From contig CAXXVK010000071.1 of assembly GCA_963676915.2 (NCBI GenBank), positions 1-27,156 on the forward strand: a DNA stretch of 27,156 nucleotides, read 5' to 3'. Of this stretch, positions 1,143-26,100 are shown piece after piece; the stretch's first letter is position 1, and each line of letters starts with the position of its first letter. The DNA comes from Myxococcota bacterium (lineage in GTDB: Bacteria > Myxococcota_A > SURF-8 > G963663525). The notes beneath the pieces are model-generated. The model was given only the letters and a program-made list of their open reading frames with translations, did no database searches and was not told where the DNA came from. The position numbers and the translations under genes were made by a program.

Positions 1143-2883
1143 ATGATCCATCGCAATGACGTGGTTGTTATTGGGTTCCGGGATGGCCGGGCTGAGGGCG
1201 GCTTTGGAAGCCTCCGAAAGCCTGGATGTGGCTGTCCTTTCCAAGCTTTACGTGCCTCGCTCCCACTCCGGTGCGGCTCAAGGGGGTATCGCCGCCGCCA
1301 TTGGGCAACCTCGAAGAGGACAACCCCGAGTGGCACATGTTCGACACGGTGAAAGGCTCGGATTACCTGGGAGATCAGGATGCCATCGAGGTGCTGACCC
1401 ACGACGCGCCGGAAACCATCATCGAGCTGGAGCATTTCGGCGTGCCCTTCAATCGTCTGCCCAACGGTCACATCGCTCAGCGGCCTTTCGGGGGGCATAC
1501 GCGGAATTTCGGTGAAGCGCCGGTCAAGCGCGCCTGCTATGCCGCCGACCGTACGGGTCATGCGATCCTGCACACCCTGTACGAACGCTGCATTTCCCGA
1601 AACGTCCGTTTTTTCGAGGAATTCCACGCTCTTGAACTGCTGTACGACGACCAACGTAACGCGCGTTTGCGGTGTCGTAGCCTACGAGTTGCAAACCGGC
1701 GAAAAGCATATTTTCCACACCAAAGCGGTGGTTATGGCGACCGGCGGTTATGGTCGTGCATGGTCCACGACGTCCAACGCCCACGCCTACACCGGCGACG
1801 GCATCGGCATGGTTTAACGACCGGGGATTGCCGCTGGAAGACCTGGAATTCATGCAGTTCCATCCCACCGGCCTGCACCCCATCGGTATTCTGATCTCCG
1901 AAGCGGCCCGTGGCGAAGGCGGTATTTTACGCAACGCCGACGGGGAACGCTTTATGGAGCGCTATGCTCCCAAAATCAAGGATCTCGCCCCCCGCGACAT
2001 GGTGAGTCGCGCCATTATGATCGAAATTCTGGAAGGTCGCGGCGTTGAGGGCAAAGACTACCTGCACTTGGATCTCAGCCACCTCGATCCAAAAATATTG
2101 GACCAGAAACTACCTGAAATCACCGGGTTTGCCCGCGCCTTTCTAGGCATCGAACCCAAAGTTGACCCCATTCCGGTTTGCGCCGACCGCTCACTATGCC
2201 ATGGGTGGAATTCCCACGAATATCCACGGCCAGGTGATTCGCAACGCACAGAACGAAGGCATCGACGGTTTTTATTCGGCCGGAGAGGCGGCCTGTGTTT
2301 CGGTGCATGGAGGCAACCGGCTGGGAACCAACTCGCTGCTCGATACGGTGGTTTTCGGGCGTCGCGCCGGAAAGCACATGCGCGAGGTGGTGCCGGAACT
2401 CGAATGGCTGCCGCTACCCAAAGATGCAGGTGAGCGGATGATGGATAAAATTTCCCGCGCACAGAAAGCGCCGGGAGAAACCACCGTCAAGGAAGTCCGC
2501 GACCGGATGCGCCGCACGATGATGGAACAACGTAGGCGTCTTCCGTACGGAAGAAAAAATGAAGCAAGCGCTCAAAGATCTCGACGAACTCAAGGCGATG
2601 TATCGCACGATCAAAGTTCGCGACGACGGAAAGATCATGAACACCGACCTTCTCGATGTGCTGGAGTTGGGTTTTCTGCTCGACATGGCGCAGGCGACGA
2701 CGGTCAGTGCGTTGGCTAGAACGGAAAGCCGAGGCGGTCATGCCCGGGACGACTACCCGAACCGGGACGACGCCAACTGGCTGGTACATACGCTGGCTTT
2801 CAAGGAAGGCGAGGGCGTACGACTGGATCACGATAAAAAAAGTCACAGTGACCCGTTTCGAGCCTAAAGAAAGAGTCTACTGA
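1143..2883 (+). CDS. sdhA: Succinate dehydrogenase flavoprotein subunit, split over 8 frame segments by 7 apparent +1 insertions
   Basis: Reconstructed colinear motifs: [25 protein letters not shown] (FAD-His), [96 protein letters not shown]. Confidence 0.93.
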
Positions 2884-6877: not shown

Positions 6878-7162
6878 TTGTATTCATAACCTTCCATGCA
6901 TTCACAGTAAGCACCGTTTTTCCAATGCACTGTTTGTTGAGATTCAGTGACATCATAGATGAAAGATCGGTCTCCATTGCTTTTTCCAACCCAACTCTTT
7001 GGTCTGAGGATTTATGCAAGAGGCTCTGTAGAGTAGTAAATAATTCTCTAGGACTTGCATTCTCTAATCATTAATGAGAGGGTTCGGCTAAAATCAAACA
7101 TCTCGGAATCTTCATCAAGAATAACTTTCGTCGCCAAAGTTCACCTGTTGGGAGGTGGCAAT

Positions 7163-10100
7163 ATGAACCGACAAGCATTCAAAAAAAAACAAATTTTTAT
7201 TCTGACCGGATTTATCTGTTTTTTATTGCTGGTTCCATTTTTGTCGATGTCTCATGCAATCAGTTTTGATTATCCTCTATGCGACTCAGAGGTGGCTACT
7301 CGCCCTGAAGCCAAACTCTGCGACGTTGAGGAGAAACTCGATGGTGCGGGGTCGTGCCCGCAAGATATTTTCAAGGCATCGACGGTCGTTTGCAACCCCG
7401 GCTCCGGCGACATCTGCGATTCGGACGAAACCTGCACGAACTCCAGTGCAGATTGCCCACAAGATAGATTTCAACCCCAAACTAAGGTTTTCCTAGCCGG
7501 TTCAGGCGATCCCTACGACCCGGACGAACGGTGTACGGGAAATGCGGGGGAGGCTTGTCCGGCGGAGGCTTACGAATACGACGAAACGGAATGCGATGAC
7601 GGAAACCTTTGCACTTTCGACGACATCTTCACTTCCGGCGTATGTTCGGGAACACCCTATGCATGCAACGGACATGGAACCTGCCTTGGTGACGGCACAT
7701 GCGAGTGCGACAGCGGTTGGAACGGCGACAAATGCGATACGGCCATTTGCTCCCCGGCTTGCGTCAACGGTTCTTGCACCATGCCCGATACGTGCTCTTG
7801 CGATTCTGGCTGGTACGGGGACGTATGCGACTCGGCGGGCGAGACGATCGTTGTAACCACAACCACCGACGAACTGGGTTCCGGCGAGGATTGTTCTTTG
7901 CGCGAAGCCATTCAGGCGGCAAACACCAATGCTGCCTACGGCGGATGCTCGACCGGTGGCGGAACAGAAATCATCATCATCCCGGCAGGAACTTACATGC
8001 TTACCCGCTACGGGAAAGGTGAAGACAGCAACGCGACCGGAGATCTGGATATCCGTAATAGCATGACGCTCGTTGGGGACGACGAAGGCGGCACCATAAT
8101 AGACGGAGGTTACGGTACGATAGGTTCGCCGGACCGTGTCTTCCATGTCGTGTATTCAAGCTACGAGGTCGTCTTTCAGCATCTCACAATACAGAACGGA
8201 AGGCTGAACGGCACAAACGATGCGGGCGGTGGTATTCTGAATCAAGGTGAACTGACGCTGCAGTCTTGTATCGTTGAAAACAACTACGCCTACTTTGGTG
8301 GAGGTGGTCTGTACGGGAGCGATTATTATGCGATCCCCTCCTCGACCTATATTGAGGATTGCCGCTTCGAAGGCAACGCCACCCACGGGTACGGCGGCGC
8401 CCTCGGGATTACCTACAGTTCCGACGCGTATGTAACAAGCAGCTTTTTTACAAGCAACACAGCCACAAACGGTGCGGGAGCGATCCACAACTACACAGGC
8501 AGCCTGGAAATTGAAACAAGCTCTTTCGTGCAAAATACCGCTCCCAATGGCGGTGCTATCCTGTCCAATGGTTCACACGCCTATGTGGTTAACACCACCT
8601 TTAGCGGCAACGAAGCCACCTACCGTGGAGGTGCGTTTTACGGCGCTTCGGCGAACGGTGTCAAGCTTGCCATGGTAACGATATCCGACAACTATTCGGA
8701 GATTCTGGGTGGGGGGCTGTATTTGTCCGGCGGTTCGGCCACCTTGCACGGCTGCCTGATTTCGGGCAACCGCGCAACCAGCGGCCCGGACGTGTACGGC
8801 ACATTGACCGCAGTCTCCGATTACAATCTGGTGAGCGACACGAGCAATGCAAGCGGGCTGGATTGTGCAACATTGCACAATGTCTGCGACCTGGCCACGG
8901 CCAACCTGACATCGCTTGATACAAGCGCCGATCTGCCTTTCTTCGGTCTGCTGCCAAGCTCGCCCGCGCTGGATGCGGGCGACTGCCTGGATTACAATGG
9001 CAATCCCGTTGCCACCGACCAGCGCGGGCGCACGCGACCGTTCCCGGTCTTGGGTCATTGCGACATCGGAGCCGTTGAGAATGGGTTCGCGTATGGCGAT
9101 GATTGCGACAGCGATTCGGACTGCGACGGCATCGGGATTTGCACCGATAACGTGTGCTGTCCGCTTTGCACCGACAACGGGAGTTGCTCGATGGATACCG
9201 GCCTGTGCGCGTGCGACACTGGCTGGGCCGGAGTCCTATGCAATATCTGCGACGAAGGGTACTACGGCACCGACTGTGAATCCTGCCCCGCATGTTCCCA
9301 CGGAAGCTGCAACGACGGTAACGAAGGTGACGGTGGTTGTACCTGTGACGTCGGCTGGGAAGGGGATCTGTGCGACTCGGCGATTTGCGATCTGACGTGC
9401 ATCCATGGAAGTTGCACCGCTCCCGACACCTGCACCTGCCTCGAAGGCTACGATGGCGACACGTGCGAGGAATGCGCCGAGGGCTACAATAACTACCCGG
9501 ATTGCGTGATGGACCCCTGCTATGATGCCGACTGCTCTGAATTCGACAGGGATTGCACGGAAGGCGTCTGCATCGACAACGGCGATGGTACCCATCGCTG
9601 TGAAGCAAACCCGATCAACGTGGGGTTGGACTGCGGCGATGGTCCGACGGAGTGCTCCGGTCAAGATACTTGTGACGGATCGGGTACATGCCAGCCGAAC
9701 GATTTCGATACTTCCACGATGTGCGGTGACGCAGGTACGGAGTGCGTGAACCAGGACTATTGTGACGGCTCCGGTTCTTGTGCCGACCATGGTTTTGTTG
9801 CTGTCAACACGGCCTGTGGCAATAGTCCGACCGAGTGCTCTGGCCAGGATACTTGCGATGGATCCGGTACATGCCAAACCAATGATTTCGATACAAGCAC
9901 GACCTGCGGTGATGACGGAACGGAATGCGTAAATCAGGACTACTGTGACGGCTCCGGTTCTTGTGCCGACCATGGCTTTGTTGCCGCCAACACGGCCTGT
10001 GGCAATAGTCCGACCGAGTGCTCCGGCCAGGATACTTGCGATGGAGCCGGTACATGCCAACCCAATGATTTCGATACAAGTACGACCTGCGGGGATGACG

Positions 10101-11743
10101 GAACGGAATGCGTAAATCAAGACTACTGTGACGGCTCCGGTTCTTGTGCCGACCATGGCTTTGTTGCTGTCAACACGGCCTGTGGCAATAGTCCGACCGA
10201 GTGTTCCGGGCAAGATACTTGTAACGGAGCCGGTACATGCCAAACCAATGATTTCGATACAAGTACGACCTGCGGAGACGATGGCAACGAATGCACCAAT
10301 CAAGACTACTGTGACGGCTCCGGCTCTTGCGCCGACAACGGATTTGCCGAAAATGGAACGGAATGTGATGATAACAACCCGGATACCAGTAATGATCAAT
10401 GTTTAGATGGAATCTGCCTTGGAGAAACTTGCACATGCGCGGAAGTGAATTCCTGTTGTGACGGTTGTTTCATCATCAACAACGGCGAATCGTGTACAAG
10501 TGACAATCTGGACTGTACGACGGATATTTGCGATGCAGGGGTCTGTACTCATCTACTGGTTGCCGATGTTTGCCTGATCGACAACCTTTGCATAGATACT
10601 GGTGCGTTGAACTCAGACAACGATTGTGAATCATGCCAGCCCGATCAACGTACAGACGCGTGGTCTTTCGTAGTGCAAGATACGCCTTGCGGTGAAGATC
10701 CGACGGATTGCTCAGGGCAGGACATATGTGACGGATTAGGTTCTTGTCAGCCGAATCACCTTGCTGAAAACACCCCGTGCGATGATTCAGATCTTTGCAC
10801 GTATTCCGACCAATGCGATGGCGAGGGCTATTGTAACGGAATTCAACACCTCTGTGAACCGGGTATCTGCGAGGTAGAATCGAATTGTGACGGTATGGGC
10901 GGTTGCGAGATGGTTTATTCGGACAACGGCGTTTATTGCGATGTGGCCGAAGAGGGACAGGAGCGTTGCTACGATGGCCAATGCGTATCGATCAATGATG
11001 GTGAAGTCTGTGACATGCCAATTCAACTCCAGGTGGATTCTCCAGAGAACTTCACGACGGATGGGATGATTAACGTGTTCACTCCGGATGAGCCTTGCAG
11101 CGAAGAGGCGCTTTTTGGCCCGGACATATTCTTCGAAGTTGATTTGCAGCCCGGAATCTATTGGATAACCGTCGATCCTGAAGATACAGCAGACCTGGCG
11201 ATAGTATTGATTGACTCCTGCGATCCTATTTCTTGTACCTACAGCCTCAATGGCGCTGGTCTTGGCGAAATGGAGTCCTATGGTCCAATCGTGGTGAATG
11301 GTGATCGCAACGAATCAACGGCTTTGTTCTCCATCGATTCTGTTTCCTATGAAACGGCTGGAAGCTTTGAGATTCTAGTTGAGAAGGAAGCCATCGTCGA
11401 CGGAGACGAAGATTTGGACTTGGAACCGGAGCAGGATGCGGAGTTCGAAGACGATCTCGATTCGGAAGATGATCTTGATCTAGACGACGATTTCGACCTG
11501 GACGAGAATCTGGACGAACCGACGGAAGCGGATGTCCATGAAAGTAGTCCAGACGGTGATATCGAGGAGGACAGGGATAATACCCCCGATGGCGATCCAA
11601 ACAATGAAGATATCGCCGATTTGGATGATGAAGCTAGTGTCTTCGGTGGTGGCGGTGGATGTCATACAACGGAGAATGTAGGCGTATTGCTTCTGGGGCT
11701 TCTCTTATGCTTTGTCTGGATTTACAGAAGGCAATGGAGATGA
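7163..11743 (+). CDS. Giant secreted Cys-rich surface protein: disintegrin-like/EGF-like repeats, CSLREA domain plus beta-helix, choice-of-anchor Q-like motif, Cys-rich tandem repeats, PPC-like domain, acidic linker, GGGGGC-TM-basic anchor
   Basis: GGAGG RBS at 7151-7155 before ATG 7163, signal peptide MNRQAFKKK...SHA, DCSLREAIQAAN, GG(A/G)I and FxxN repeats, LLPSSPALDAG...DQRG..RP...CDIGAVE, C-terminus GGGGGCHTT-hydrophobic-RRQWR. Confidence 0.85.
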   Translation: MNRQAFKKKQIFILTGFICFLLLVPFLSMSHAISFDYPLCDSEVATRPEAKLCDVEEKLDGAGSCPQDIFKASTVVCNPGSGDICDSDETCTNSSADCPQDRFQPQTKVFLAGSGDPYDPDERCTGNAGEACPAEAYEYDETECDDGNLCTFDDIFTSGVCSGTPYACNGHGTCLGDGTCECDSGWNGDKCDTAICSPACVNGSCTMPDTCSCDSGWYGDVCDSAGETIVVTTTTDELGSGEDCSLREAIQAANTNAAYGGCSTGGGTEIIIIPAGTYMLTRYGKGEDSNATGDLDIRNSMTLVGDDEGGTIIDGGYGTIGSPDRVFHVVYSSYEVVFQHLTIQNGRLNGTNDAGGGILNQGELTLQSCIVENNYAYFGGGGLYGSDYYAIPSSTYIEDCRFEGNATHGYGGALGITYSSDAYVTSSFFTSNTATNGAGAIHNYTGSLEIETSSFVQNTAPNGGAILSNGSHAYVVNTTFSGNEATYRGGAFYGASANGVKLAMVTISDNYSEILGGGLYLSGGSATLHGCLISGNRATSGPDVYGTLTAVSDYNLVSDTSNASGLDCATLHNVCDLATANLTSLDTSADLPFFGLLPSSPALDAGDCLDYNGNPVATDQRGRTRPFPVLGHCDIGAVENGFAYGDDCDSDSDCDGIGICTDNVCCPLCTDNGSCSMDTGLCACDTGWAGVLCNICDEGYYGTDCESCPACSHGSCNDGNEGDGGCTCDVGWEGDLCDSAICDLTCIHGSCTAPDTCTCLEGYDGDTCEECAEGYNNYPDCVMDPCYDADCSEFDRDCTEGVCIDNGDGTHRCEANPINVGLDCGDGPTECSGQDTCDGSGTCQPNDFDTSTMCGDAGTECVNQDYCDGSGSCADHGFVAVNTACGNSPTECSGQDTCDGSGTCQTNDFDTSTTCGDDGTECVNQDYCDGSGSCADHGFVAANTACGNSPTECSGQDTCDGAGTCQPNDFDTSTTCGDDGTECVNQDYCDGSGSCADHGFVAVNTACGNSPTECSGQDTCNGAGTCQTNDFDTSTTCGDDGNECTNQDYCDGSGSCADNGFAENGTECDDNNPDTSNDQCLDGICLGETCTCAEVNSCCDGCFIINNGESCTSDNLDCTTDICDAGVCTHLLVADVCLIDNLCIDTGALNSDNDCESCQPDQRTDAWSFVVQDTPCGEDPTDCSGQDICDGLGSCQPNHLAENTPCDDSDLCTYSDQCDGEGYCNGIQHLCEPGICEVESNCDGMGGCEMVYSDNGVYCDVAEEGQERCYDGQCVSINDGEVCDMPIQLQVDSPENFTTDGMINVFTPDEPCSEEALFGPDIFFEVDLQPGIYWITVDPEDTADLAIVLIDSCDPISCTYSLNGAGLGEMESYGPIVVNGDRNESTALFSIDSVSYETAGSFEILVEKEAIVDGDEDLDLEPEQDAEFEDDLDSEDDLDLDDDFDLDENLDEPTEADVHESSPDGDIEEDRDNTPDGDPNNEDIADLDDEASVFGGGGGCHTTENVGVLLLGLLLCFVWIYRRQWR
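9632..10363 (+). repeat. Intragenic tandem repeat, 4 x 183 bp (61 aa)
   Basis: TGCCGACCAT recurs at 9781, 9964 and 10147. Unit is CG.SPTECSGQDTCDG.GTCQ.NDFDTSTTCGDDGTECVNQDYCDGSGSCADHGFVA.NTA. Confidence 0.95.
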
Positions 11744-13243: not shown

Positions 13244-16200
13244 TCAGTTATTTCTACAGCAAAGGACGCCCGCCACGTCATCGCTGATGTTTCCACAGCC
13301 GTTGGAAGAAGATCCTGTGATGTGTGTTTCTCCAGACCATAGACCGCTTTTGCAATCTCCTTCGCTAATATTGACTCCACATGCAATTGCTTCGGAACAT
13401 GAATTATTAGTTAGACAACCGTAAGGTTCGGTATAGCTGCATGTGCCGCTCGTGCAATGGGAAGACGCCGCCGCGAAAACACCCTCTCCCGCTGTATCCG
13501 AATTGCAATCATCTGCCGAAATCCTGTCGCTTAGGTCCGCGCTTAGGCCGTTTTTCATGCAGATATGCCAGCCTTCGGCGCAGAGATCCTCGGCAGTCGG
13601 GCATATCACATCCAGGCTGTTTCCGCATGTCGTGTTGCTTCGTGTGGCGCGTAGGTTGCGATCGGTGAAATCTCCGGCGCAGGAGGCGATGCCCGGAAAT
13701 TCCAATTCATTTACGAAACCTTCACGGGAGTTGTCGGAACAACCAGGATTAACCGCTGGAAAGATGATTTCAACCATCGGTTCTGCCTCTTCCAAGGGGC
13801 GCACATATATCCAATCTAGGTAGCATTCCGAATCCCATGGATTTCGGAATTCAATAGTTTGCCAGGGGCTTATCGCAGTCCAAGTTTTTGGCATAACTTT
13901 ACCACTCAAACTATCATCCTCTGAACTGATAACATGGGTTTCGGTTTCGTAAAAGGCATATTCCAAGCCGTGCCAGGAGCCTTCCGATCCCGGTGGGGGA
14001 ACCTCAGTAAAACTACAACCGAAGTCTGGGCATTCAGTGCCGTGCCAATCACCTTCATTATTTCCGGCGAGGAAGAAAACTGAAACATCATTGTTGCGAA
14101 GTTCGATCACGCAAGTAGTGTATCCATGTCCGCTGGTGTTTAATTGCTGTCGAAACTTTACAGCATTTCCAGGTACTTGCCATTCTGAAAAAGTGGTATA
14201 TGCTCCCTCTGCGGCGGTCTGCGTTTCAATGGTTAATTGAGTATTTTCCGTATCGACCAACAGTCCACTGCTTACGTTGTCTAATGGCACCCACTCCCCG
14301 CTTGCCAGCACGTCCGTGTCGAAATCCTCGAAATAGGTAAAAATCGCTTCCGGGTTCGGAGAGATCACCCCGCCCGTATTCCACCATAAAAGGAATTCCG
14401 TGCCGGTTTCCTGCATTTCGGGCGGGAGACCAACCCACACGGCGAACCCGTGTTCCGTCTCCGAAATCGCCTCCACCCAATAATCCATCGATTCGCTGAG
14501 GGCGATGTCAGATTTATCTTCCGGTAGCGGTTCGTCCGGTTGCAGGAAGATTTCGAGGCGCACGGGATACACCGCCTCCTGGACCTCCATGCCACCGATC
14601 GCCACTTTCCGAGCCGGTTTGCATCCCTGTATCGTAGTGAATCCCAAGACCGATTCGAGCGTACAAGTCGTTCCAACATCGATACACGCATCTCCGATAC
14701 CGTCGTGATCGAAATCCTCCTGTTCCGGGTTGGCCACCAGCGGGCAGTTGTCGTCGCAGTTTGTGTCTTCGGGACCATCGCACGGATGGTCGCCCGAGGC
14801 CAGCGAGCCGTCGCCGTCGTCGGGGATGCCGTCGCCGTCCGAGTCCAGCGGGTCGCCGCTTGGGTCGGTCAAGGCTCCCAACTGGTGGGACGCTAACGGG
14901 TAGTGCAGGAATTCGTCGGGGGCGAGGGCGCGGTTCATGATGCGGACGGAGTCGATGAGGCCATGGAAATGAAACGAATTTTCAACTTTTCCGAGATAAA
15001 TGGGTGTTGTTGTGAAATCGGGTTCGCCAGATTCGATTTCGTACGTTTCCATGATGTGATCTGTCGAAAGATAAAACGTATTCTGTTGATATCCACCGGA
15101 AATTGTGTGTGGATCTGTGTCCAAGACTTCCGAATACTCCCTGAAATAATCGCCATCGCTTTCATCTTCGAATTGAGTACGCCATGCTCCGGTATTGTTT
15201 GTTGACAGCATATAATTTCTGTGTTCCGTGGAACTGGCCCATAGCCCTTTATGCAAAATAATACCAATATCATTCATGAATGATTCGATATCGATAGCTG
15301 CTTCCATATTGAACGCTTTGAGGTTCAAAGAATCATCATGTGAGATGATGACCCCATCATCCACCCCATCGAACTCCAGAGCCGTTCCTTCACGCCCTGC
15401 CACCCACTGGGGCGGGCCATCCGTGCCTTCGAGCGTCCCGTTATTTTTATTCGTGCTCGAATCTACGGCAATGGTCCCCGCCCCCTCGTTAAACCGCCAC
15501 CAACCCGCGTAACCGGTGCATTCGGAGAGCAGGCCGGTGCAGGTTCGGAAATTTTCGCGGTAGGCGTGATGGGCGAGTTCCACCGGGCGCAGGCGGGCGT
15601 CGGGATCGGCCCAGTGCAGCGCATAACTCAGCCACGAAAAAGGCCCGTCGGAGCCACCTTGGGAGTCCAGAGGCTCCGTATGCGCCAGGAATCGCAGGGT
15701 CGGAAGGTTCGGGTGAGCGCGCCGGTAGATGTATTCCGGGGTTTTTGCAACCGAGTGGATGAGGAGATCGTCGATGGTTCCATGGAAATAATAACTATTA
15801 GTCGTTCTACAACCGATAGAAAAACGATCATCACTGATTAGTGGACCGGTTGGGTCACTACCGAGTATTGATTCCTCAGTTTCTAATAATTGTCCATCCA
15901 AATAAAGAATAAGATCGTTAAAATCAGTACGTACAAGCGCAACATGATGATAATGATTTTTTGAAAAGGTTATAGGATTTGAGTCAATCACTTTTTTGTT
16001 ATTATCGGTATCTCTAAAACCTGCCGATAGGTATCCATTGTTATCGTAAAGTATAAACAAATTGGCTCCATTTACGGGTAAACCACGATAAACAAGATCT
16101 TGGCGATTTGCATTCAAATCGAGTGTTTCTTTTGGCGAAAAATACAACTCAACGGTAAATTCCGTTAGACCGTTCATGATGTTTCCATCTAGGCCAATCT

Positions 16201-18442
16201 TTGAGTATTGTCCGTCGAATCCCATTCCTCCATTTTTATCCCCAAATCTTCCGTAGGTAGCGACAGCGCCGACATTGGTTCCATCATGCTCATTTCCACT
16301 CGAATCGACCCCATCCCCATCCAGTTTCCAATACCCCACAACCCCGCACAAATCCTCGCGGTCGGCGATGTGAGGAATTTCCGCCGGGTCGAGGTCGTCG
16401 TATTCCGCCGGGCAAGGTGTGTCGGAATGCGGACGCGGGCCGAGGATTTCATGAGGGACCAAATGCTCGTCGCTGGCCGCTGGTAGCTGGTCGCTGGTTT
16501 CGGTGATACGGAGGTCGTCGAAGTCGTCCTGTGCGCCGGGAACGTGTTTCGTGCCGTAGGGGGCGCGGGAATCGTAGTAGGCGCGGATTTCGTCAGGAGA
16601 AAGGGCGCGGTTGAAGAGGAGGACTTCGTCGATGGAGCCGTCTAGAGGTTGAGTAGAATCTGTCTTGCCTATTTTAAATGATGGAATACTTTCAGTTTGA
16701 TTTTGCAATGAAGAAAATTGGGCGAAATCTTTCTCAACCAAATTACCATTTACAAACCAGGATTGACTATTCTGATCTAGAATGACAGATATGTGATACC
16801 AGCGATTGAGTTCAAACTGATAACTTTCAACACCTACCTGAGTCCACTCAGCACAACCGTTATTACCAGAACAGTATCCAATTCCCAATTGAATTTCACC
16901 ATTTGAAGAGAAGAACAGTAACTCAAACATTCCATTTCCTGGACTAGCACTTCCTAAAAGTGCCGCATACTCCGAGAAATCATTCAAAAATACCCATAAA
17001 GATATCGAAAGATTCGACAAACCAAGGAATGTTTCATATGAGATATTTGTATCTAAGTACGTTGATTCTCCATCAAACACCATCGCCCCATCCGTATCCC
17101 CAAACGCGCCCTCACTTGCCGTCGGAGCGGGATCGGACAAGGTTCCATCATTCCCATTCCCCGAATAATCCCGAGCCTCGCCGTTATCCAACTTCCAATA
17201 CCCCACCACGGAATCGTCCAGAATCCCGTTGACGAGCGGCAGCTCCACCGGCTCGTTCGTGCGTCGCCAGGTGGAATTTTCTCCATTTTCCGAGAGTGTG
17301 ACCGACCGTTGTGCGCCGAATTCCGCGCTATAGGTACTCCAGGCTTCGCAAAGACTCGGATCGTTGTCCGGGTTCCAGACGGTCGGGCAGGTGTCGGCTT
17401 CGACAGGGTCGCAGTCCGGCGAAAAACACACGCCGTCGTGGTCGTAATCGGGTTCGGCTTCCAGGCAGTTGCCGTCATGCACGAACAACCCGGCTTCGGT
17501 GTCGCAGACCTCGCACAGATCGCCCGACCAGCGGTGATCGCAGCCGCTGCAGGTGCCGTCACCCGCGCAGGTGCCGCCGTGTAGGCAGGTATAGGAGGCT
17601 CCCTCGCACACTCCGCCGGTGCCACAGGCGTCGTCGGTGCTGCACGAGTTACCATCGTCGCAAGGTCCGGTAGTCAGTACCGTCCAGGCATCGTTGCGGT
17701 TGATCGGCGTGCAGATCCGGCAGGAATCGTCACCCGACAAGCCTTGCAGCGCGTTTTGTTCAACACAGGCGGAATCGATATAACAGCCGGAAAGGATTTC
17801 GTCCACCACGCAAGCCCCGGACTCGCAGACTTCGGCGACGCAATCCGTTCCATCGGCATCGCAGGTGTTTTGGTCGTCGTTGAGTTCCACGCAGTCGTTT
17901 TCGACGCACGCAAGGCTCGTACAGGGATTTGCATCCTCGGTAACATCCTCGCAGCCCGTCTCATCGATGCAATCGACACACGCCCCGCTCAAGCATTGGT
18001 CCTGCGCTCCACAGGCGGTGCCGTCCTCGACGGGCGAACAGCCGTCCGGGCAGCAGGTCGAAACACCGGAACAGGCGCATTCCGGCTCGATTTCTTCCGT
18101 TAGGTCATCGAGGTCAGCATCTTGTTCCGTCGTGTCGTCGGAGTCGTCTTCCGTGGCGTCGTCGAGATCGGTATCCGGGATTTCGTTCACATCCAAATCC
18201 GTGTCGGCATCGCTTTCACCGGGATCATCGGTTTCGTCATCCAGGTTTTCCAAATCCACGTCACCGTCACCCATGCAGGATTCCAGGCAAACACCCTCGC
18301 AGCAGGTTAAAGTTCCGTTGCAGGTATCGTTGCCGAAACAGGGATCTCCCAGGCCACCGTAGTCGCCAAGGCTCCAGGAGTCGCATGCGCTGAAAACCAG
18401 AAGATGAACCAACAGTACACAACAGACGATCGAAGTACGCAT
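13244..18442 (-). CDS. 1732-aa surface lipoprotein: acidic linker, Cys-rich repeats, thrombospondin type-3-like repeats, 3 LamG/concanavalin-like domains, DUF2341-like segments, Cys-rich C-terminal domain
   Basis: Lipobox FSA-C20. G(Y/W)W(K/R)(L/F)...D.S.N.N.GT...FDG...G.ID three times. DSDGDGIPD and DNCP.VANP.QED.DHDGIGDAC. DDLRIT, YWVE...VWV, FEDFD and DWIYVR motifs. Confidence 0.85.
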   Translation of the reverse strand: MRTSIVCCVLLVHLLVFSACDSWSLGDYGGLGDPCFGNDTCNGTLTCCEGVCLESCMGDGDVDLENLDDETDDPGESDADTDLDVNEIPDTDLDDATEDDSDDTTEQDADLDDLTEEIEPECACSGVSTCCPDGCSPVEDGTACGAQDQCLSGACVDCIDETGCEDVTEDANPCTSLACVENDCVELNDDQNTCDADGTDCVAEVCESGACVVDEILSGCYIDSACVEQNALQGLSGDDSCRICTPINRNDAWTVLTTGPCDDGNSCSTDDACGTGGVCEGASYTCLHGGTCAGDGTCSGCDHRWSGDLCEVCDTEAGLFVHDGNCLEAEPDYDHDGVCFSPDCDPVEADTCPTVWNPDNDPSLCEAWSTYSAEFGAQRSVTLSENGENSTWRRTNEPVELPLVNGILDDSVVGYWKLDNGEARDYSGNGNDGTLSDPAPTASEGAFGDTDGAMVFDGESTYLDTNISYETFLGLSNLSISLWVFLNDFSEYAALLGSASPGNGMFELLFFSSNGEIQLGIGYCSGNNGCAEWTQVGVESYQFELNRWYHISVILDQNSQSWFVNGNLVEKDFAQFSSLQNQTESIPSFKIGKTDSTQPLDGSIDEVLLFNRALSPDEIRAYYDSRAPYGTKHVPGAQDDFDDLRITETSDQLPAASDEHLVPHEILGPRPHSDTPCPAEYDDLDPAEIPHIADREDLCGVVGYWKLDGDGVDSSGNEHDGTNVGAVATYGRFGDKNGGMGFDGQYSKIGLDGNIMNGLTEFTVELYFSPKETLDLNANRQDLVYRGLPVNGANLFILYDNNGYLSAGFRDTDNNKKVIDSNPITFSKNHYHHVALVRTDFNDLILYLDGQLLETEESILGSDPTGPLISDDRFSIGCRTTNSYYFHGTIDDLLIHSVAKTPEYIYRRAHPNLPTLRFLAHTEPLDSQGGSDGPFSWLSYALHWADPDARLRPVELAHHAYRENFRTCTGLLSECTGYAGWWRFNEGAGTIAVDSSTNKNNGTLEGTDGPPQWVAGREGTALEFDGVDDGVIISHDDSLNLKAFNMEAAIDIESFMNDIGIILHKGLWASSTEHRNYMLSTNNTGAWRTQFEDESDGDYFREYSEVLDTDPHTISGGYQQNTFYLSTDHIMETYEIESGEPDFTTTPIYLGKVENSFHFHGLIDSVRIMNRALAPDEFLHYPLASHQLGALTDPSGDPLDSDGDGIPDDGDGSLASGDHPCDGPEDTNCDDNCPLVANPEQEDFDHDGIGDACIDVGTTCTLESVLGFTTIQGCKPARKVAIGGMEVQEAVYPVRLEIFLQPDEPLPEDKSDIALSESMDYWVEAISETEHGFAVWVGLPPEMQETGTEFLLWWNTGGVISPNPEAIFTYFEDFDTDVLASGEWVPLDNVSSGLLVDTENTQLTIETQTAAEGAYTTFSEWQVPGNAVKFRQQLNTSGHGYTTCVIELRNNDVSVFFLAGNNEGDWHGTECPDFGCSFTEVPPPGSEGSWHGLEYAFYETETHVISSEDDSLSGKVMPKTWTAISPWQTIEFRNPWDSECYLDWIYVRPLEEAEPMVEIIFPAVNPGCSDNSREGFVNELEFPGIASCAGDFTDRNLRATRSNTTCGNSLDVICPTAEDLCAEGWHICMKNGLSADLSDRISADDCNSDTAGEGVFAAASSHCTSGTCSYTEPYGCLTNNSCSEAIACGVNISEGDCKSGLWSGETHITGSSSNGCGNISDDVAGVLCCRNN

Positions 18443-18445
18443 AAT

Positions 18446-19309
18446 CTACCAACTTCCCCATAAACAGACCGAAACACCGTTTTCCATGGGGGATGCCCCA
18501 AAGTGATAGGCTTGTTTCGCCTCTTTTTTCTTGCCCGTAGCCTCGACGATCCACAGCGTCACCCCTGTAGCCATCAGTGCGCCACCAAGCGCGTAGCCTG
18601 TTGCCGCCATCCCTTTCCAGGTTGTATGGCGGCTTTTGGCGTCGGACTCTCCGGCAGCGTAATCGTCACGGACCTGGTTCATTTGCCAATGGGCGACGCC
18701 GCCGAACAACGTCAGCCCCACACCCGTAAAAAATGTGGCGTAAGCCGCCGTTGTCATGTTCGAGGAAGGCTTTTTGAGCGACTTGTGAGCTTTGGGTGGG
18801 GTTTGTGCCGTTTCGGGAGATGTTTTCTCGAACAGCTCCGCAACCGCTGAGGGAATCGCTTCGATCAGTCGGTTGATGTCTCCTTTCAACTGCACGCCCG
18901 AACGGGAAATCACTTCCGCCGAGCGGACGTTGATCCGTCGTAGGTTCAGAATCCAGTATTCGCCCAGGCGCCCGAGGTCACCGGATATCGCTTCGGGAAC
19001 TCCCAACGCCGCTCCGATCTCGGCAATGCAGCTTGCACTTTCCGCGCCGCATTTCTGGCGTTTTTCCTCACCCTGTAAAATGGTTAGAATATCCGCATCG
19101 GACAGCGCCGTACGACCGGAGCGCCGTTCGACTTCCAAGGTGATGAAACCGGAAATGGAGTCGATGTCTTCGATACTGACGCCGCTTTTCTTCTCCAGTT
19201 CCCACACCATGATGCCGGAACGTTCCTTTGTCTCGGCCATCGCCGGAGCGATCCATCCCGCCAGGAACGCGACCACAACAAAACCTGTCAGCCAAACGTA
19301 CAATTTCAT
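18446..19309 (-). CDS. Secreted protein with CsgG/TolB-N/DUF2380-like alpha/beta domain and hydrophobic C-terminal region ending in Trp
   Basis: Signal peptide MKLYVW...AMA from ATG 19309, C.....C.AEIG.ALG...I.G.LG.LG....LNLR.INV motif, two Gly-rich hydrophobic segments, terminal VSVCLWGSW. The stop is 3 bp before the lipoprotein ATG. Confidence 0.7.
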   Translation of the reverse strand: MKLYVWLTGFVVVAFLAGWIAPAMAETKERSGIMVWELEKKSGVSIEDIDSISGFITLEVERRSGRTALSDADILTILQGEEKRQKCGAESASCIAEIGAALGVPEAISGDLGRLGEYWILNLRRINVRSAEVISRSGVQLKGDINRLIEAIPSAVAELFEKTSPETAQTPPKAHKSLKKPSSNMTTAAYATFFTGVGLTLFGGVAHWQMNQVRDDYAAGESDAKSRHTTWKGMAATGYALGGALMATGVTLWIVEATGKKKEAKQAYHFGASPMENGVSVCLWGSW

Positions 19310-19389
19310 CGATATCAACCCTGTTCGTCTCCGAACGATCTTGAGAAGTAAGAATGCTGTTTTGTGCAATATCGCAATATGGTACGTCG

Positions 19390-19417
19390 AATATACCACA
19401 AAAGGGAAGGGCTTCAA
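19390..19417 (-). promoter_or_regulatory. Putative sigma70-type promoter of the partner-gene/LamG-lipoprotein operon
   Basis: Minus strand TTGAAG (19417-19412), 16-bp spacer, extended -10 TG-g-TATATT (hexamer 19395-19390), 80 nt upstream of ATG 19309. Confidence 0.55.
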
Positions 19418-21300: not shown

Positions 21301-23139
21301 CTAAGAAGGGTCGATTGTGCCATCAGGTATTATTTCTATGTTTTCCGTATCGATTACACGAATCCAGCCAGCATTCCAATGCATTCCAGGTTCAATACCG
21401 CTTACAGTGTGTGGTGGACCATAAAGCAATGTTGCCATCAGGTTTCCATGGATCCACACCTTTACCTTCGCTTGATCGTTGTAATTTATTGTGGAGTAAT
21501 TTTCAACGGCAATCCGATAATCACCAGCCATCGCACCGGACATGATCATTACTTCAGGGCCGCTTCCTGAAATGTCGTCGAAAAGCAACATTGGGTCGTC
21601 AGACCGAAGACCTTGGATATTCCAATCGACGGCATTGAGAGGACCGGGGCATCCTCTTTCTGGGCAAGGCATTTCAGCCCCATTAGATGTATTGCAATTG
21701 CAATAATGACAATCGGAATCATTATTGTCACTGCAATCTCGCGAGAAGCTCCCCTCGGGTCGAATTAGGTGCAGATCGTAGTCACTGTTCGTCGACGTCC
21801 AGGTAAGCTGAATGTAAACATCTGGAACAGGAATTGCCTCAATAACAATTTCATCGGTGGTTGTTTCTTCACAACTGCCTACGAGATTACGTAACGTTAG
21901 TCTCAGTTCATATGTCCCTGGTGTTTCCGAATAAAAATGAATGTTTGAGTCACTTAGCCATTGACCCGCTACAGAATTGTTTTCTCCGTCTTGGATTATG
22001 GCCCTGTAAGCGTCATCCGGTTTGGTGATCCACTCCCATTTATATGCGATGTTTTCTTCACCCATATGAAAAAAACCTTGTTGATTGAGGTATATCGTTT
22101 TCAACGGTTCGACAATCTTGTCCTGTCCAGCATTTGCCACAGTACATCTGTTGAGTATCTCGACAGTAGCCAATCCGCCAGAACCAGAGTAACCTCCGGC
22201 AACCATTACTCGCCCATCGGACAACAAGCTTGCTGAATGCAAATATCTTGCCTGAGAAAGGGTACCGTCAGCTATCCAAATATTTTCAATCGGGTTGTAA
22301 ACTTCACTCGATGTCAAGGCTGATGAGGACGAGCGTCCACCTGCAACAAGTACCTGGCCATCGCTTAACACCGTCGCTGTATGGCTTGCTCGGGCTTCGC
22401 TCATCGGCTGAACGGCAGTATAGTCATTCGTATCAGTGTTGTAACGATCGCAGGTTAACGCTGGCGTATTCTGGGCGACCATGCCCCCACAAATCAACAC
22501 ATTCCCATCTTGGAGCAACACCGCCGTATGCCCGGCTCGTGTATGCTGCATAGCACCCGGCACAAGAGTGATAGTTTCAGCCATTGGGTCGTATAGTTCA
22601 CAGGTGTCCAAATACGTACTGAAATCGCTCTGCCCGCCGCAAATCAGAACGTTTCCATTTCTCAAGAGGTTCAGCGTTGGTGCCTTGCGAGCTACAGTCA
22701 AATTCGGTCCGGAAAAGAAGGCTTCCGTTGCCGGATTGTATAACTCGGTAGAGGCCAGGTAATTCCCGCCACTTTGAGGTTGACCACCGACCACCCATAC
22801 CTTGCCGTTGGGCAGCAAAATAGCCGCGTGGTTGAGCCGGTTTGTAGCCAGCGCACCGGTGAACTGTTGGTTTTCACCTGCTTGATCCAGAATTTCCGCT
22901 CTGGCGTCTGTCGATCCACCGACAACCAGCACCCGACCATCGGTCAGGAGGGTTGCGGTATGTGCAGTTCGCCCGGCATTCATGTTCGTCGTCGACAGCA
23001 CGAGCTGGTCCAGGTCCGTAGTATCATCGGTCTTTGCATCAAACGATGACTCTTGAGAACAAGACGAACAGCAAACGAGGACTAAAGCCAACACACTTGC
23101 GAAGATTTTATTTTTTACACGGTTCATATCTGAAACCAT
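21301..23139 (-). CDS. Kelch six-bladed beta-propeller probable lipoprotein with PKD-like and YfaP/DUF2135-like C-terminal domains
   Basis: Signal peptide ending VCCSSC, six Kelch repeats, VANAGQD...YKWE (PKD-like), IQLTW....DYDLHL...DD..G.GPE...GDYRI.V. The start overlaps the upstream stop (TGATG). Confidence 0.82.
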   Translation of the reverse strand: MVSDMNRVKNKIFASVLALVLVCCSSCSQESSFDAKTDDTTDLDQLVLSTTNMNAGRTAHTATLLTDGRVLVVGGSTDARAEILDQAGENQQFTGALATNRLNHAAILLPNGKVWVVGGQPQSGGNYLASTELYNPATEAFFSGPNLTVARKAPTLNLLRNGNVLICGGQSDFSTYLDTCELYDPMAETITLVPGAMQHTRAGHTAVLLQDGNVLICGGMVAQNTPALTCDRYNTDTNDYTAVQPMSEARASHTATVLSDGQVLVAGGRSSSSALTSSEVYNPIENIWIADGTLSQARYLHSASLLSDGRVMVAGGYSGSGGLATVEILNRCTVANAGQDKIVEPLKTIYLNQQGFFHMGEENIAYKWEWITKPDDAYRAIIQDGENNSVAGQWLSDSNIHFYSETPGTYELRLTLRNLVGSCEETTTDEIVIEAIPVPDVYIQLTWTSTNSDYDLHLIRPEGSFSRDCSDNNDSDCHYCNCNTSNGAEMPCPERGCPGPLNAVDWNIQGLRSDDPMLLFDDISGSGPEVMIMSGAMAGDYRIAVENYSTINYNDQAKVKVWIHGNLMATLLYGPPHTVSGIEPGMHWNAGWIRVIDTENIEIIPDGTIDPS

Positions 23140-26100
23140 CAGTGAATGCTAATGTGAAGCTTTTTACGGGTAATGGCTAATCCCAACCCGAAAAGAACTA
23201 TGAAAAGGAAGCTCACCCCCGAAGTACCTGAGGACTGGCAACCTCCGCCTCCGCCAACCGGCAAAACGTCTTCATCGCCATCCTGAGGGATTTCCTCATC
23301 AGCACCCGTAGAAGTATCTTCATCCGCTACCGGTTGATTTTCGCTTGTGTCATCGTCTGCATCAGCCAAATCTCTATCCGAAACGTCAATATCGTGATCA
23401 ACATCGGCCATTTCTTCGTCCTCGACTTCCTCGTCACCATCTACACAGGCGCCTTCAACACCCAAGCACTCTCCAGTAGACGTACATGAATCTTCCGATG
23501 TACATGGGTCACCATCGTCACAGACAGTTCCTTCGACCTCCAGCACAACATCGCAACCGCCGACTCCATCGCAAGTCGCAGAGGCCACACAAGGCCCTTC
23601 CTGGCTTTGGCAGGAATACGAAGAACCGATGCAGTCTCCGTTGGCATCACATTGATCAAAGGTTGTACAAGGATCACTATCGTCACAGGCGGTTCCTTCG
23701 ACTTCCAGTACGACGTCGCAACCACCAGCACCATCGCAGTCCGAGCTGATCACGCATTGCCGATCATCAGTGCAAGAATACCCGGTCCCAACACATAATC
23801 CGTTGTCGTCGCATTGGTCGTTGAACGTACAAAGACTCTCATCCGTGCAAGTGGTGCCGGTATCTGCCAACGGATAGGCACAAATGGGTTCTCCGGAATC
23901 CGGGTCGAAGGCAGGATAACCAGGCGTCAGACGGCAAGCAGCGCTGGGTTCCTGCAAGCAGTCCAATGAGATACCGCCGACGCATAACCCCGTAATCGGA
24001 TCGCATCCGCTATCGCAGGGGTATTGATGCTCTGGATACTCACACTCTCCGACCTGAGGATCACATTCACCATGGGCCTCGAACAGACGCATGTTCACGT
24101 CATCCATGCAATTGGGAATCAATGGTGTTACACAAGGCTTGAGTTCACCTTCGCAAACGCCTTCTTCCATGCAAACATCGTAAATCGTACACAGGTTGCC
24201 ATCGTTGCATTCTGTTCCCGTTTCTTTATATTCTCGAATACATCCTCCAAAACCATCGCATTGGGCTGAAATATCGCAGGTGCGTACCTCGCAAGCGTAG
24301 GTTGTACCCATACAAAGTCCAAAGCCGTCGCAGATATCGCTATGCGTGCAGGGATCTTCATCATCGCAGGCCGCGTCGAACGGCATGGGGGACCAGGCAT
24401 ATTGATTTTGACTGTCGGCACAAAGCTCGCATTGATTGTCTGGGTTTCTCGTACCATCATTAAAACAGACGCTTTGAATCAAGCAGGTGCCCGGCATCGC
24501 CTCATGGACACAGGCTCCTGACCCATTACAGACATCCGAAGTACAAGCGAGATCGTCTGTTGTACAAGCCTCTCCGTACGGCGTGTTGTCCGGTTCACAT
24601 CCACCGGCTCCATCGCAATTGACGGCCAATTCACATTCTTCTGGATCTCTACAGGTATAGGTCGTGCCCTGGCAAACGCCTGCACCATCGCAGACATCCG
24701 TATGCGTGCAGGCTTCTCCATCATCACAGGAAAAGCCGCTCTCTTGATACGTCACAGTACAATCGCCAAGACCGTCACAGGTTACGGTGTCCTCGCATTG
24801 CGTTGGTTCCGGGCAGGTGTAACCTGTGCCAGCACAATTGCCGGCGCCATCGCATTCGTCCGTATGCGTACAGGTTGTTTCATCATTACAGGCGGTTCCG
24901 TTCGGCTGGTATTCTCTGTTGCAACCACCTTCGCCATCACATGTGACATTGATCTCGCACTGGTTTGGATCATCGCAAGTATAATTTGTTCCGGCGCAAA
25001 CTCCTGCACCGTCGCAGATGTCCGAATGCGTGCAGTCCTCGCTATCGTCGCAAGTCGTGTCAACGGGTAAATTGCTCCAGGAAGAGTGGCTCTCGCTGGC
25101 TACACAGCCAATGCATTGCTCTCCTTGCTGGGCGGCACCATCGTCGTAGCAGGTATTGTCGATCAGACATTTGTTGAGCATCACAAGGTGCTCACAAGTC
25201 CCTGAACCGTTGCAGACGTCGTTGGTGCAGGAGAAGGCATCATTAGTACAGGCTGTGCCTTGTTCAAAGTCGCTCCAACCTTCCTGGGAGATCGCAGGAG
25301 CACAACCGACACATTCGTTGGTCGAGCTTTCCGCTCCGGATTCGTAGCAGGAACCATCGATCAAACATTTGTTCGTTTGGATTGGATGGGTGCAAGCCCC
25401 CATGCCATCACAGATATCGTTGGTACAAGAGAAACCGTCGTTCGTGCAACCCGTGTTCAGCGGCAAATTGCTCCAAGATTCTTGAGAATTTGCCGGGTTA
25501 CAGCCGACACACTCATTGGTGGGGTTCGCCAAACCCGAAACGTAACAGGTATCATCGATCAGGCATTTGTCGTTTTGCAGGTTATGCGTACAGACCCCTG
25601 CACCATCACACACATCGTTCGTGCAAGATAAGTTATCGGACGTACATCCATAACCCTGTGGATGATACTGGTGATTGCAGCCACCGTTACCATCGCAAGT
25701 CACTGCATTCTCGCAATCGTTTGGCGCTTCACAGCTATAATCCGTACCGCCGCAGTTTCCAGCACCGTCGCATTGGTCCGTATGTGTGCACGAGTTTCCA
25801 TCGTCGCACACGAAGCCATTTGATTTGTAAACCACCGTACAGTCCACACCATTGGGCGTCGAGCTTTCCTCGCATTGAGTAGGTGTACAGACATAGAAAT
25901 CTCCTGCACATCCACCTTGACCGTCGCAACGGTCATTGCGGGTGTTGTTCAATCCGTCGTCGCAGGTGGCTCCATTCTCCTTGTATGTCACCGTGCATCC
26001 ACCCAGTCCGTCGCATTCCACGCTTTCCTCGCACTGTGTCGGAGCTGGACAGGAGTACACCGTTGCACCCGCACAGATTCCCTCACCGTCGCAAATATCC

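Follow-up and report, generated by a model that had tools for sequence, protein, structure and literature searches.

We analysed a 27,156-nucleotide stretch of the genome of an uncultured Myxococcota bacterium (contig CAXXVK010000071.1 of assembly GCA_963676915.2; hereafter the window) and found that one gene on its minus strand, encoding a protein with three LamG domains, consists of a GC-rich, conserved frame interrupted by AT-rich, hypervariable domain interiors, which we call cores. Comparison of this gene with its relatives demonstrated that cores and frame have separate genealogies with breakpoints at the core borders. On balance, we think it probable that the gene is a conserved frame carrying interchangeable binding modules, that it recombines at the core borders, and that the AT-richness of the cores is a by-product. 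The genome (G000) is a metagenome-assembled genome (MAG) of 74 contigs, 91% complete with 3.8% contamination. We refer to the contig with the studied gene as C71, to a congener as G001, and to the orthologue in that congener as L013.

The ORF list and the translation give one intact open reading frame (ORF) of 1732 amino acids (aa), whose product is probably exported and lipid-anchored, judging from a signal peptide that reads, by eye, as ending in a lipobox (...LLVFSAC). Laminin_G_3 (PF13385) matched the protein in three stretches (145.9 bits against a Pfam cut-off of 27.6; E-value 1.3e-42). From the N-terminus, an acidic stretch and Cys-rich EGF-like repeats are followed by the three LamG domains with linkers of about 135 aa, an Asp-rich thrombospondin-type-3-like repeat, a fourth variable region and a conserved Cys-rich C-terminal domain. 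An AlphaFold2 model of the 905-aa triple module, made from a six-row alignment, was used solely to confirm three beta-rich domains; its mean predicted local distance difference test score (pLDDT) of 52, with about 60-80 in the LamG parts and below 35 in the linkers, was too poor for fold searches or surface mapping. The spacers of about 70 aa between the LamG domains (within 16220-16624 and 15374-15766, minus strand; for example ...IPHIADREDLCGVVGYWKLDG) are among the best-conserved parts of the family and have pLDDT below 35; they may fold only with a partner, a metal or disulfide bonds. The parts of the gene are as follows, with G+C at third codon positions given as GC3 and with C59 denoting a paralogue.

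13244-18442, minus strand: whole gene, coding for a probably exported multidomain protein of 1732 aa (three LamG domains); including this one, the genome has at least four paralogous loci
18383-18442, minus strand: signal peptide, lipobox-like ...LLVFSAC (translation, by eye)
17078-18382, minus strand: N-terminal GC-rich scaffold, with the acidic stretch, the EGF-like repeats and the first strands of LamG 1 (GYWKLD...SGNG); GC3 0.5-0.87
16625-17077, minus strand: core 1, aa 456-606, from FDG to G.ID, AT-rich and hypervariable; GC3 0.30 against 0.76 in its flanks; 25% identical to core 1 of C59
16220-16624, minus strand: linker 1-2, aa 607-741, with the last strand and helix of LamG 1, the conserved spacer of about 70 aa and the first strands of LamG 2; GC3 0.5-0.8; 60-85% aa identity across paralogues and relatives
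15767-16219, minus strand: core 2, aa 742-892, the most AT-rich of the cores; GC3 0.28 against 0.68 in its flanks; 24-33% identical to all other position-2 cores
15374-15766, minus strand: linker 2-3, aa 893-1023; 90% identical to C59 and 94% to the G001 orthologue
14948-15373, minus strand: core 3, aa 1024-1165; GC3 0.44 against 0.81 in its flanks; 25-31% identical to other position-3 cores
14696-14947, minus strand: post-core-3 scaffold, with the end of LamG 3 and the Asp-rich thrombospondin-type-3-like repeat, the GC-richest part; GC3 0.8-0.93; aa sequence 92% identical to that of C59, which the segment matches without a difference over 126 nt
13763-14695, minus strand: fourth variable region, aa 1250-1560, an orphan, weakly DUF2341-like; GC3 0.27-0.5 over aa ~1390-1560
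13247-13762, minus strand: conserved C-terminal Cys-rich domain; 71-72% aa identity to C59 and G001 and 60% to G003; 81% nt identity to C59

Base composition along the gene

The original prediction, made from the letters of the window, was that base composition switches sharply inside one intact ORF, and its six 60-nt G+C counts (20, 17 and 19 in the cores against 38, 38 and 44 in the flanks) were reproduced exactly on recounting. GC3 spans 0.13-0.93 while the frame stays open, and because it is not flat along the gene, amino-acid composition alone fails as an explanation. In 30-codon windows GC3 was 0.13-0.47 in the three cores against 0.6-0.93 in the scaffold, and G+C at first and second codon positions (GC1 and GC2) was lower in the cores as well. 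Total G+C ranged from 0.275 to 0.717 within the gene (120-nt windows). Genomic G+C is 52% (standard deviation 5.2 points for 300-nt windows), and about 1% of such windows lie at or below 0.37 and about 1% at or above 0.62; the gene thus alternates between both tails of the genomic distribution. Its GC3 range of 0.75 in 60-codon windows ranked first among the genome's 2538 ORFs of at least 250 aa, and two of its paralogues ranked third and fourth.

When adjacent 120-nt segments were compared, the largest steps in G+C fell at nt 17085, 16654, 16251, 15726, 15361 and 14963, and five of these six were 0.25 or more, a size reached at just 121 of 172,181 positions sampled genome-wide. The FDG motifs start at 17077, 16219 and 15373 and the G.ID motifs lie at 16639, 15781 and 14962. 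The proposal that the switches sit at these two motifs stood for composition, which steps there, and had to be amended for identity to relatives, which collapses some 30 aa before FDG, just after an SGNG motif. The rise in G+C after G.ID is abrupt and the fall on the FDG side is gradual. A weaker fourth dip that had been proposed at about 13800-14300 is also present, with GC3 of 0.27-0.5.

A conserved frame with unrelated cores

The family occupies at least four loci in G000 (C71, C59, C62 and C35) and at least five in G001, and is present in 29 of the 41 related genomes searched, G000 included; among the relatives, those with a named organism are MAGs of Myxococcota or MAGs with a similar label. 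A scan of metagenome contigs returned distant relatives only (9 loci), and a scan of genome contigs returned 11 loci. From about aa 41 onwards, the scaffold is 76-99% identical to C59 at the nucleotide level and 82-100% at the aa level, against 8-30% aa identity for the three cores, and identity drops at the same places as GC3 switches. Near-identical scaffolds enclosing unrelated cores, with identity and composition both changing at the FDG and G.ID borders, are what the original prediction had named as support for exchange; the uniform divergence of core and scaffold that would have spoken against it was not seen. In BLASTN searches run separately on the two kinds of segment, the scaffolds matched three other loci (C59 at 81-96%, C62 and C35 at 69-80%), and cores 1-3 and the fourth region returned themselves only from the whole genome (word size 11).

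Across eleven modules from four genomes, linkers are 55-94% identical and cores 19-35%, except for core 2 of L013 and L015 (64%) and core 3 of C35 and L014a (42%). The studied gene and L013 share upstream synteny, but identity between them is just 29% in core 2 and 27% in core 3. The N-terminal scaffold has 63% aa identity overall to the fragment of that orthologue, with an unbroken run of 37 identical residues up to '...DYSGN' before core 1, where identity collapses.

Synonymous differences (pS, the proportion of synonymous sites that differ) separated cores from frame in the same way. Between C71 and C59, six scaffold segments gave pS of 0.09, 0.15, 0.25, 0.30, 0.38 and 0.56, a significant heterogeneity (chi-square 61.8, 5 degrees of freedom, P-value 5e-12) with identical tracts of up to 129 nt; the N-terminal scaffold accounts for 0.15 (aa 40-220) and 0.38 (aa 221-420), linker 2-3 for 0.24-0.25 and the post-core-3 scaffold for 0.09. 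The cores gave saturated values of 0.64-0.84, the highest in core 1 (0.84). Because protein-level selection cannot raise synonymous divergence, either the common ancestors of the cores must be far older than those of the frame, or the cores must have a much higher mutation rate. Segment trees are incongruent, as had been anticipated: for linker 2-3 the gene groups with its G001 orthologue (support 83/86) within a clade that includes C59 (93/95), and for the post-core-3 scaffold it groups with C59 (94/99), with the G001 orthologue far away. The sole core pair alignable at the DNA level, core 2 of L013 and L015, has a nonsynonymous proportion (pN) of 0.07-0.40 against a pS of 0.41-0.82, next to an upstream linker with pS of only 0.20-0.25. 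Since pN is below pS, cores are under purifying selection once established.

To extend these comparisons, we used the conserved linker (aa 600-741) as a query at an E-value of 1e-5 or below. This identified 86 other proteins that carry it (87 with the query), 38-83% identical save for the weakest, a short partial match. The 87 proteins were cut into 265 cores and 151 linkers, and pairs without a BLAST alignment over 60% of their length were counted as below threshold. Identity of 40% or more was reached by 94 of 34,980 core pairs and by 5,020 of 11,325 linker pairs. Core identities, binned by the identity of the linkers, were distributed as follows.

Linkers at least 80% identical (n=24): cores below 30%, 20; 30-40%, 1; 40-70%, 0; 70-80%, 2; 80% or more, 1
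Linkers 70-80% identical (n=124), lower bins: cores below 30%, 87; 30-40%, 20; 40-50%, 2; 50-60%, 3
Linkers 70-80% identical (n=124), upper bins: cores 60-70%, 9; 70-80%, 2; 80% or more, 1

Furthermore, a single linker pair may have one adjacent core at 77-89% identity and the other at 25-39% (for example P0162/P0164, P0007/P0182 and P0158/P0168). Retained cores, at 77-89%, are about as conserved as their linkers, at 81-87%; cores therefore have no inherently higher rate of evolution: each is kept or it is replaced. Of the 50 core pairs with at least 50% identity, 15 exceed one of their flanks by 15 points or more. Core and flanks are incongruent in P0162, P0163 and P0164: at one position the core of P0162 is nearest to P0163 (80% vs 55%) and its flanks are nearest to P0164 (94/90 vs 70/78). 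This all-or-none pattern points to discrete replacement of cores, or recombination at their borders, and is at odds with drift that is steady and fast. We regard recombination breakpoints at the core borders as firmly indicated by these comparisons, which also place the gene, with differing genealogies for flanks and centre, alongside mosaic surface-protein genes.

Two further sources of core diversity were considered and rejected. Exchange between the gene's own three positions left no more than repeats of 16-55 nt at 63-88% identity that reflect shared motifs, and none of 242 cross-position core pairs exceeded 32% identity. Recent import from a sampled foreign donor was set aside because searches with core 2, core 1 and the fourth region gave no close relative among the sequences covered: the best match of core 2 among 1.84 billion representatives is 33%, with none above 40% among the matches listed, and for core 1 a set of 361 candidates with shared words (266-2000 aa) contained no relative besides core 1 itself, a weak negative given the limits on length and shared words.

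The slot of the fourth region holds non-homologous domains. Here it is an orphan with a DUF2341 match at aa 1317-1384 that falls under the Pfam cut-off (22.0 bits against 23.4), and it likewise found only itself among 1891 candidates of 952-3031 aa, weak evidence under the same limits. FGE-sulfatase occupies the same slot in C59, C35, C62, L013 and L017. With flanks conserved on both sides, the orphan here against FGE-sulfatase in the G001 orthologue makes a non-homologous swap visible. Across the paralogues and the G001 and G007 relatives, the slot holds one to four FGE-sulfatase domains.

Two observations concern damage to family members. The C62 paralogue (L024, C62:26280-36167) lies in three ORFs, and both breaks fall inside LamG cores (model positions ~81-146); it could be a pseudogene, a phase-shifted gene or the product of a sequencing error in AT-rich sequence. 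In G001, an identical ISL3-family transposase gene of 460 aa splits an AT-rich LamG core in each of three paralogues; at least 40 identical copies of this transposase occur in G001 and none in G000. LamG cores, which by a rough estimate make up ~0.1% of the G001 genome, appear to be preferred targets. The insertions are:

L013:5023-6402 (G001): ISL3 insertion
L014:2332-3711 (G001): ISL3 insertion
L015:3614-4993 (G001): ISL3 insertion

Possible explanations for the variable, AT-rich cores

In the mechanism that we favour, the frame (Cys-rich repeats, linkers, Asp-rich repeats and C-terminal domain) would be under strong purifying selection and would recombine, by homologous recombination or gene conversion, between paralogues and between genomes. 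The LamG interiors of ~145 aa would represent old, mutually unalignable lineages, and so would the non-homologous fourth region. Because recombination tracts would start and end in the conserved flanks, a core is kept whole or replaced whole, and separate genealogies could arise without a dedicated enzyme. Import of a core and homogenisation of the scaffold describe one kind of event from two sides and look alike in these data. The suggestion in the original prediction that the flanks serve as recombination arms is borne out in part: kept or replaced cores lie beside similar linkers, but swapping among the G000 paralogues was not seen. The cores would set ligand specificity.

The composition of the cores can be placed against that of ordinary genes. 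Across 1841 ordinary orthologue windows, identity correlated with GC3 (rho 0.32; mean GC3 rising from 0.55-0.58 to 0.64), with GC1+2 unchanged. In a matched-conservation pass over 1832 ordinary 30-codon windows compared with G001, those below 35% identity (n=145) had a median GC3 of 0.57, with 0.7% at or below 0.33; those at 90% or more (n=490) had a median of 0.63, with 8.4% at or above 0.77 and 0.4% at or above 0.87. Core GC3 (0.17-0.43) and scaffold GC3 (0.6-0.93) are thus both outliers, and a general rule that conserved means GC-rich was rejected as the explanation, being real but small. At four-fold degenerate sites the cores (A 0.31, C 0.19, G 0.22, T 0.29) have the composition of the 56 AT-rich ORFs of the genome. 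Among recent lineage-specific changes in the scaffold, 40 ran from G/C to A/T and 6 in the opposite direction, which implies a mutational equilibrium that is AT-rich and close to core composition. The cores are probably AT-rich as a side effect of their not recombining, which would leave AT-biased mutation to act on them: unique cores, unable to pair with a homologue, would escape the recombination-linked or selective force that keeps GC3 near 0.6 and would decay to equilibrium, and the much-recombined flanks would be pushed above the genome average. Elsewhere in the genome, six ORFs at C55:16756-24987, with GC3 of 0.24-0.30, form its most AT-rich gene block, and their four-fold sites resemble those of the LamG cores.

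A bolder form of this account, which we hold tentatively, is that the family is a pan-genomic library of binding cassettes in which the linkers are recombination-hot and the GC3 sawtooth is a direct footprint of recombination-linked GC enrichment. Paralogues, strains and species would trade cores and alternative fourth-slot domains without loss of the reading frame, and GC3 would reach ~0.9 just after each core against ~0.2-0.4 inside, where AT-biased mutation would go unopposed. In 11 of 14 testable groups, genes that recombine have been reported to have a higher GC3 than genes that do not, and recombination was proposed to explain heterogeneity of composition within genomes (PMC4450053). That work, on the hypothesis of GC-biased gene conversion, compares whole core genes; the contrast here lies within one gene and is far larger.

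Several points weigh against our account or suit an alternative that we consider unlikely, in which ordinary point mutation under diversifying or relaxed selection drives the cores apart rapidly and steadily where they stand, recombination is confined to the scaffolds, no core moves, and AT-richness is mutational decay of weakly constrained sequence. No core is common to the four G000 paralogues (0 pairs among C71, C59, C35 and C62 above 33%) or to G000 and G001 (best cross-genome pair 42%, or 40% over the trimmed interior), so no core was actually seen to move, and an identical pattern could arise if the scaffolds alone were homogenised. Same-position cores score 54 against 31 for different positions (1.8 when shuffled), a weak positional signal that therefore suits divergence from position-specific ancestors. 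Median pS between G000 and G001 is 0.64, near saturation (99 reciprocal best pairs), so neutral drift alone could randomise orthologous cores. The GC-richer orthologous core pairs are also the most conserved (35% and 42%, against 24-29% for three AT-rich pairs), and recent changes carry the AT bias of 40 to 6 given above. The link between conservation and GC3 is uneven (rho 0.78/0.91 in C71, 0.45/0.48 in C35 and -0.04/0.29, that is absent, in C62). The family counts are of metagenome proteins, in which alleles, paralogues and orthologues are not told apart, and contigs cannot show the absence of a core. Lastly, the contrasts in PMC4450053 concern whole genes, and the part of that paper cited here holds none comparable to the 0.3 vs 0.9 seen in this gene. 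Steady divergence in place, however, sits poorly with bimodal core identity beside near-identical linkers (0 of 24 pairs at 40-70%), with retained cores as conserved as their linkers, with the purifying selection on core 2 of L013 and L015, and with ordinary fast-evolving windows that are not AT-rich (median GC3 0.57); nor can selection saturate synonymous divergence in the cores while the flanks stay at pS 0.09-0.38. Quite improbable, in our view, is that the AT-rich codons were themselves selected, for slow translation during folding, low mRNA structure or silencing by nucleoid proteins. GC3 is indeed lower in the core than in the flanks in all 26 full-length cores of G000, G001, G007 and G009 (52-59% GC), and a dip also covers the FGE-sulfatase domains of the C35 paralogue. 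Yet GC3 is at or below 0.47 in 19 of the 26 and 0.57-0.66 in the other 7, the dip is weak or absent in relatives with 60-72% G+C, C62 lacks the conservation-GC3 link, GC1 and GC2 fall too and alter the amino-acid make-up, and the four-fold sites equal those of the 56 AT-rich ORFs, as general pressure predicts and tuned codons do not.

A dedicated machine that rewrites the cores, whether a retroelement like a diversity-generating retroelement (DGR), a targeted mutator or a site-specific cassette shuffler, is very improbable. Sharp borders recurring at the same motifs would suit it, as would two reverse transcriptase (RT) genes elsewhere in the genome and, in the paralogues, FGE-sulfatase, a domain that the DGR literature names. 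The original prediction saw no RT or recombinase in the window, and our scan of its 14 main ORFs, target included, agreed; its further idea of an exchange system as such was dropped, with no recombinase or RT in those ORFs, no template copy and no silent cassettes. No RVT family was found in the target or the window's 13 other main ORFs, and the two RVT_1 matches lie at C25:26145-26831 (L065) and C29:24096-24725 (L066). Repeats within 12 kb of both RTs gave mixed mismatch spectra with no adenine-specific signature, and none touched the LamG gene of the window itself, among the matches listed. BLASTN found no near-identical copy of cores 1-3 or the fourth region in the genome that could act as a template repeat. 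A six-frame hidden Markov model search found no silent LamG array: LamG-like segments lie almost solely in long ORFs (C71, C59, C62, C35, C17, C9 and C72), together with two short frames truncated where their contigs stop (C9:1-486, and C35:148399-148902, which continues the C35 paralogue). The scanned ORFs hold no recombinase for a shufflon or invertase, and the repeats within the gene are short and weak, with two weak inverted pairs (72% and 79% complementary) off the core borders. Four-fold sites show no deaminase-like strand bias (A 0.31, T 0.29), and no near-identical variant contigs over cores 1-2 were found in the source-like run, where contigs drop rare variants. Beside the C29 RT lie two long, internally repetitive stretches (C29:21615-22683 and 25738-26609), 71-76% identical to each other in many registers.

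We find it barely credible that the pattern is an assembly artefact in which AT-rich pieces of another organism were stitched between shared conserved segments. The genome is a 74-contig MAG, and contigs of the source-like run break inside conserved scaffolds (13584/13622, 14762/14921 and 15385/15712), so the order of core 3 and the fourth region relative to cores 1-2 is given by the MAG alone. Against this, an independent contig of 2102 nt spans scaffold, core 1, linker and core 2 with 0 differences, the reading frame is kept through six switches, and the same pattern occurs in the single-chromosome assembly G007 and in the 4-contig congener G001. Contigs of a run from a second study also speak for recombination at the core borders: they carry the scaffolds (~85-95% identity) linked by unrelated DNA of similar length, 430 letters in the place of core 1 and 417 in that of core 3. 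Core 3 is retained at ~87% identity on one such contig, from run X2; cores 1 and 2 and most of the fourth region lack X2 contigs at 85% or more, which, for contigs, is no proof of absence. As a separate observation, summed contig depth in run X1 is 157 in 15158-15331 against 2.5-11 elsewhere, with loose ends at 15247 and 15280, and is likely due to a short match from an abundant unrelated contig.

Neighbouring genes and known systems

The window also encodes succinate dehydrogenase genes, a TauE exporter, a carboxyl transferase, a large EGF-repeat protein, an adenylate cyclase and two Kelch proteins. The ORF nearest to the LamG gene is:

18446-19417, minus strand: 323-aa ORF, no Pfam or NCBIfam match, 3 nt upstream of the LamG gene

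This ORF may be a conserved partner. It has 79% nt identity to L013 2212-3541, upstream of the G001 orthologue, and, through a shared relative on C25, similar DNA was detected at C71:18919-19217, at C59:73476-73684 (just upstream of that paralogue) and on C22. The succinate dehydrogenase flavoprotein gene (1226-2433, plus strand) is divided between ORFs 1226-1894 and 1750-2433, which overlap, differ in frame and match successive parts of FAD_binding_2, owing to either a frameshift or an assembly error. Two further genes are very large: 7055-11743 (plus strand) has EGF-like, CSLREA and choice-of-anchor Q matches, and 23139-27116 (minus strand, 1325 aa) has no family match in the Pfam or NCBIfam scans.

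The family is widespread (the 86 further linker proteins) and unstudied: at the level of titles and abstract openings, we found no description in the literature of the family or of AT-rich LamG cores. With LamG interiors that are replaceable while the frame stays fixed, the family may be a repertoire for recognition of prey, kin, phage or substrate, and the coincidence of domain borders with recombination borders in one reading frame offers a natural template for swapping LamG binding cores. The locus could also be used to test whether recombination or selection keeps bacterial GC above mutational equilibrium; if the pan-genomic library were true, the family would be an unusually clean intragenic natural experiment on bacterial GC variation. 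In addition, such genes break assemblies, attract insertion sequences and can mimic horizontally acquired islands.

Several known systems can be compared with this locus. In pilE/pilS or vlsE systems, a promoterless array of partial copies donates sequence to an expressed gene, and invertase or shufflon switches use a site-specific recombinase and inverted repeats at cassette borders. A DGR target, a silent-cassette system and a shufflon were each rejected, their defining features having been tested for and not found. The gene resembles the DGR targets surveyed in PMC5758913 in having hypervariability in a ligand-binding fold on a conserved protein, with FGE-sulfatase-type domains in its paralogues. 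It differs from them in that its variable unit is ~450 nt and unalignable, whereas a DGR works with a near-copy of ~100 nt.

The TraA-type receptor combines a PA14-like variable domain with a MYXO-CTERM sorting tag. Myxococcus TraA, a recognition receptor on the cell surface, is polymorphic and has a variable domain (PMC6372800, PMC5562445). Like TraA, the protein belongs to the same phylum and would be a surface protein with hypervariable recognition domains on a conserved Cys-rich stalk; unlike TraA, it has three LamG cores, with no PA14 match in Pfam (E-value 0.1 or below) and no TraA-type or MYXO-CTERM match in NCBIfam (E-value 0.01 or below). By this analogy, TraA is a possible functional model, with a role in self, kin or prey recognition.

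O-antigen and capsule loci have a low-GC hypervariable centre, the origin of whose low GC is debated, and conserved flanking genes that act as recombination arms. Capsule diversity has been attributed to recombination (PMC10433991). The likeness lies in an AT-rich hypervariable centre within an AT-poor frame and in block exchange through homologous flanks; those loci are multi-gene, whereas the variation here is in frame within one ORF, at domain borders. The closest parallels are single genes: flagellin fliC has conserved ends and a hypervariable middle, and hypervariable regions are shuffled in wsp. In Wolbachia, the hypervariable regions of wsp lie between conserved ones (PMC2843615). The LamG gene shares with both the conserved flanks, the separate histories, breakpoints in the conserved parts and the lack of a dedicated enzyme. 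Unlike them, it varies over the whole LamG interior, three times in tandem and with a non-homologous fourth module, in a family that is multi-copy per genome and has an extreme contrast in composition (GC3 0.13-0.93). Taken together, these comparisons place the locus with the mosaic hypervariable surface-protein genes, a known kind; what is new is the use of whole LamG interiors as in-frame cassettes, their tandem triple arrangement with a slot for other domains, and the sawtooth in composition.

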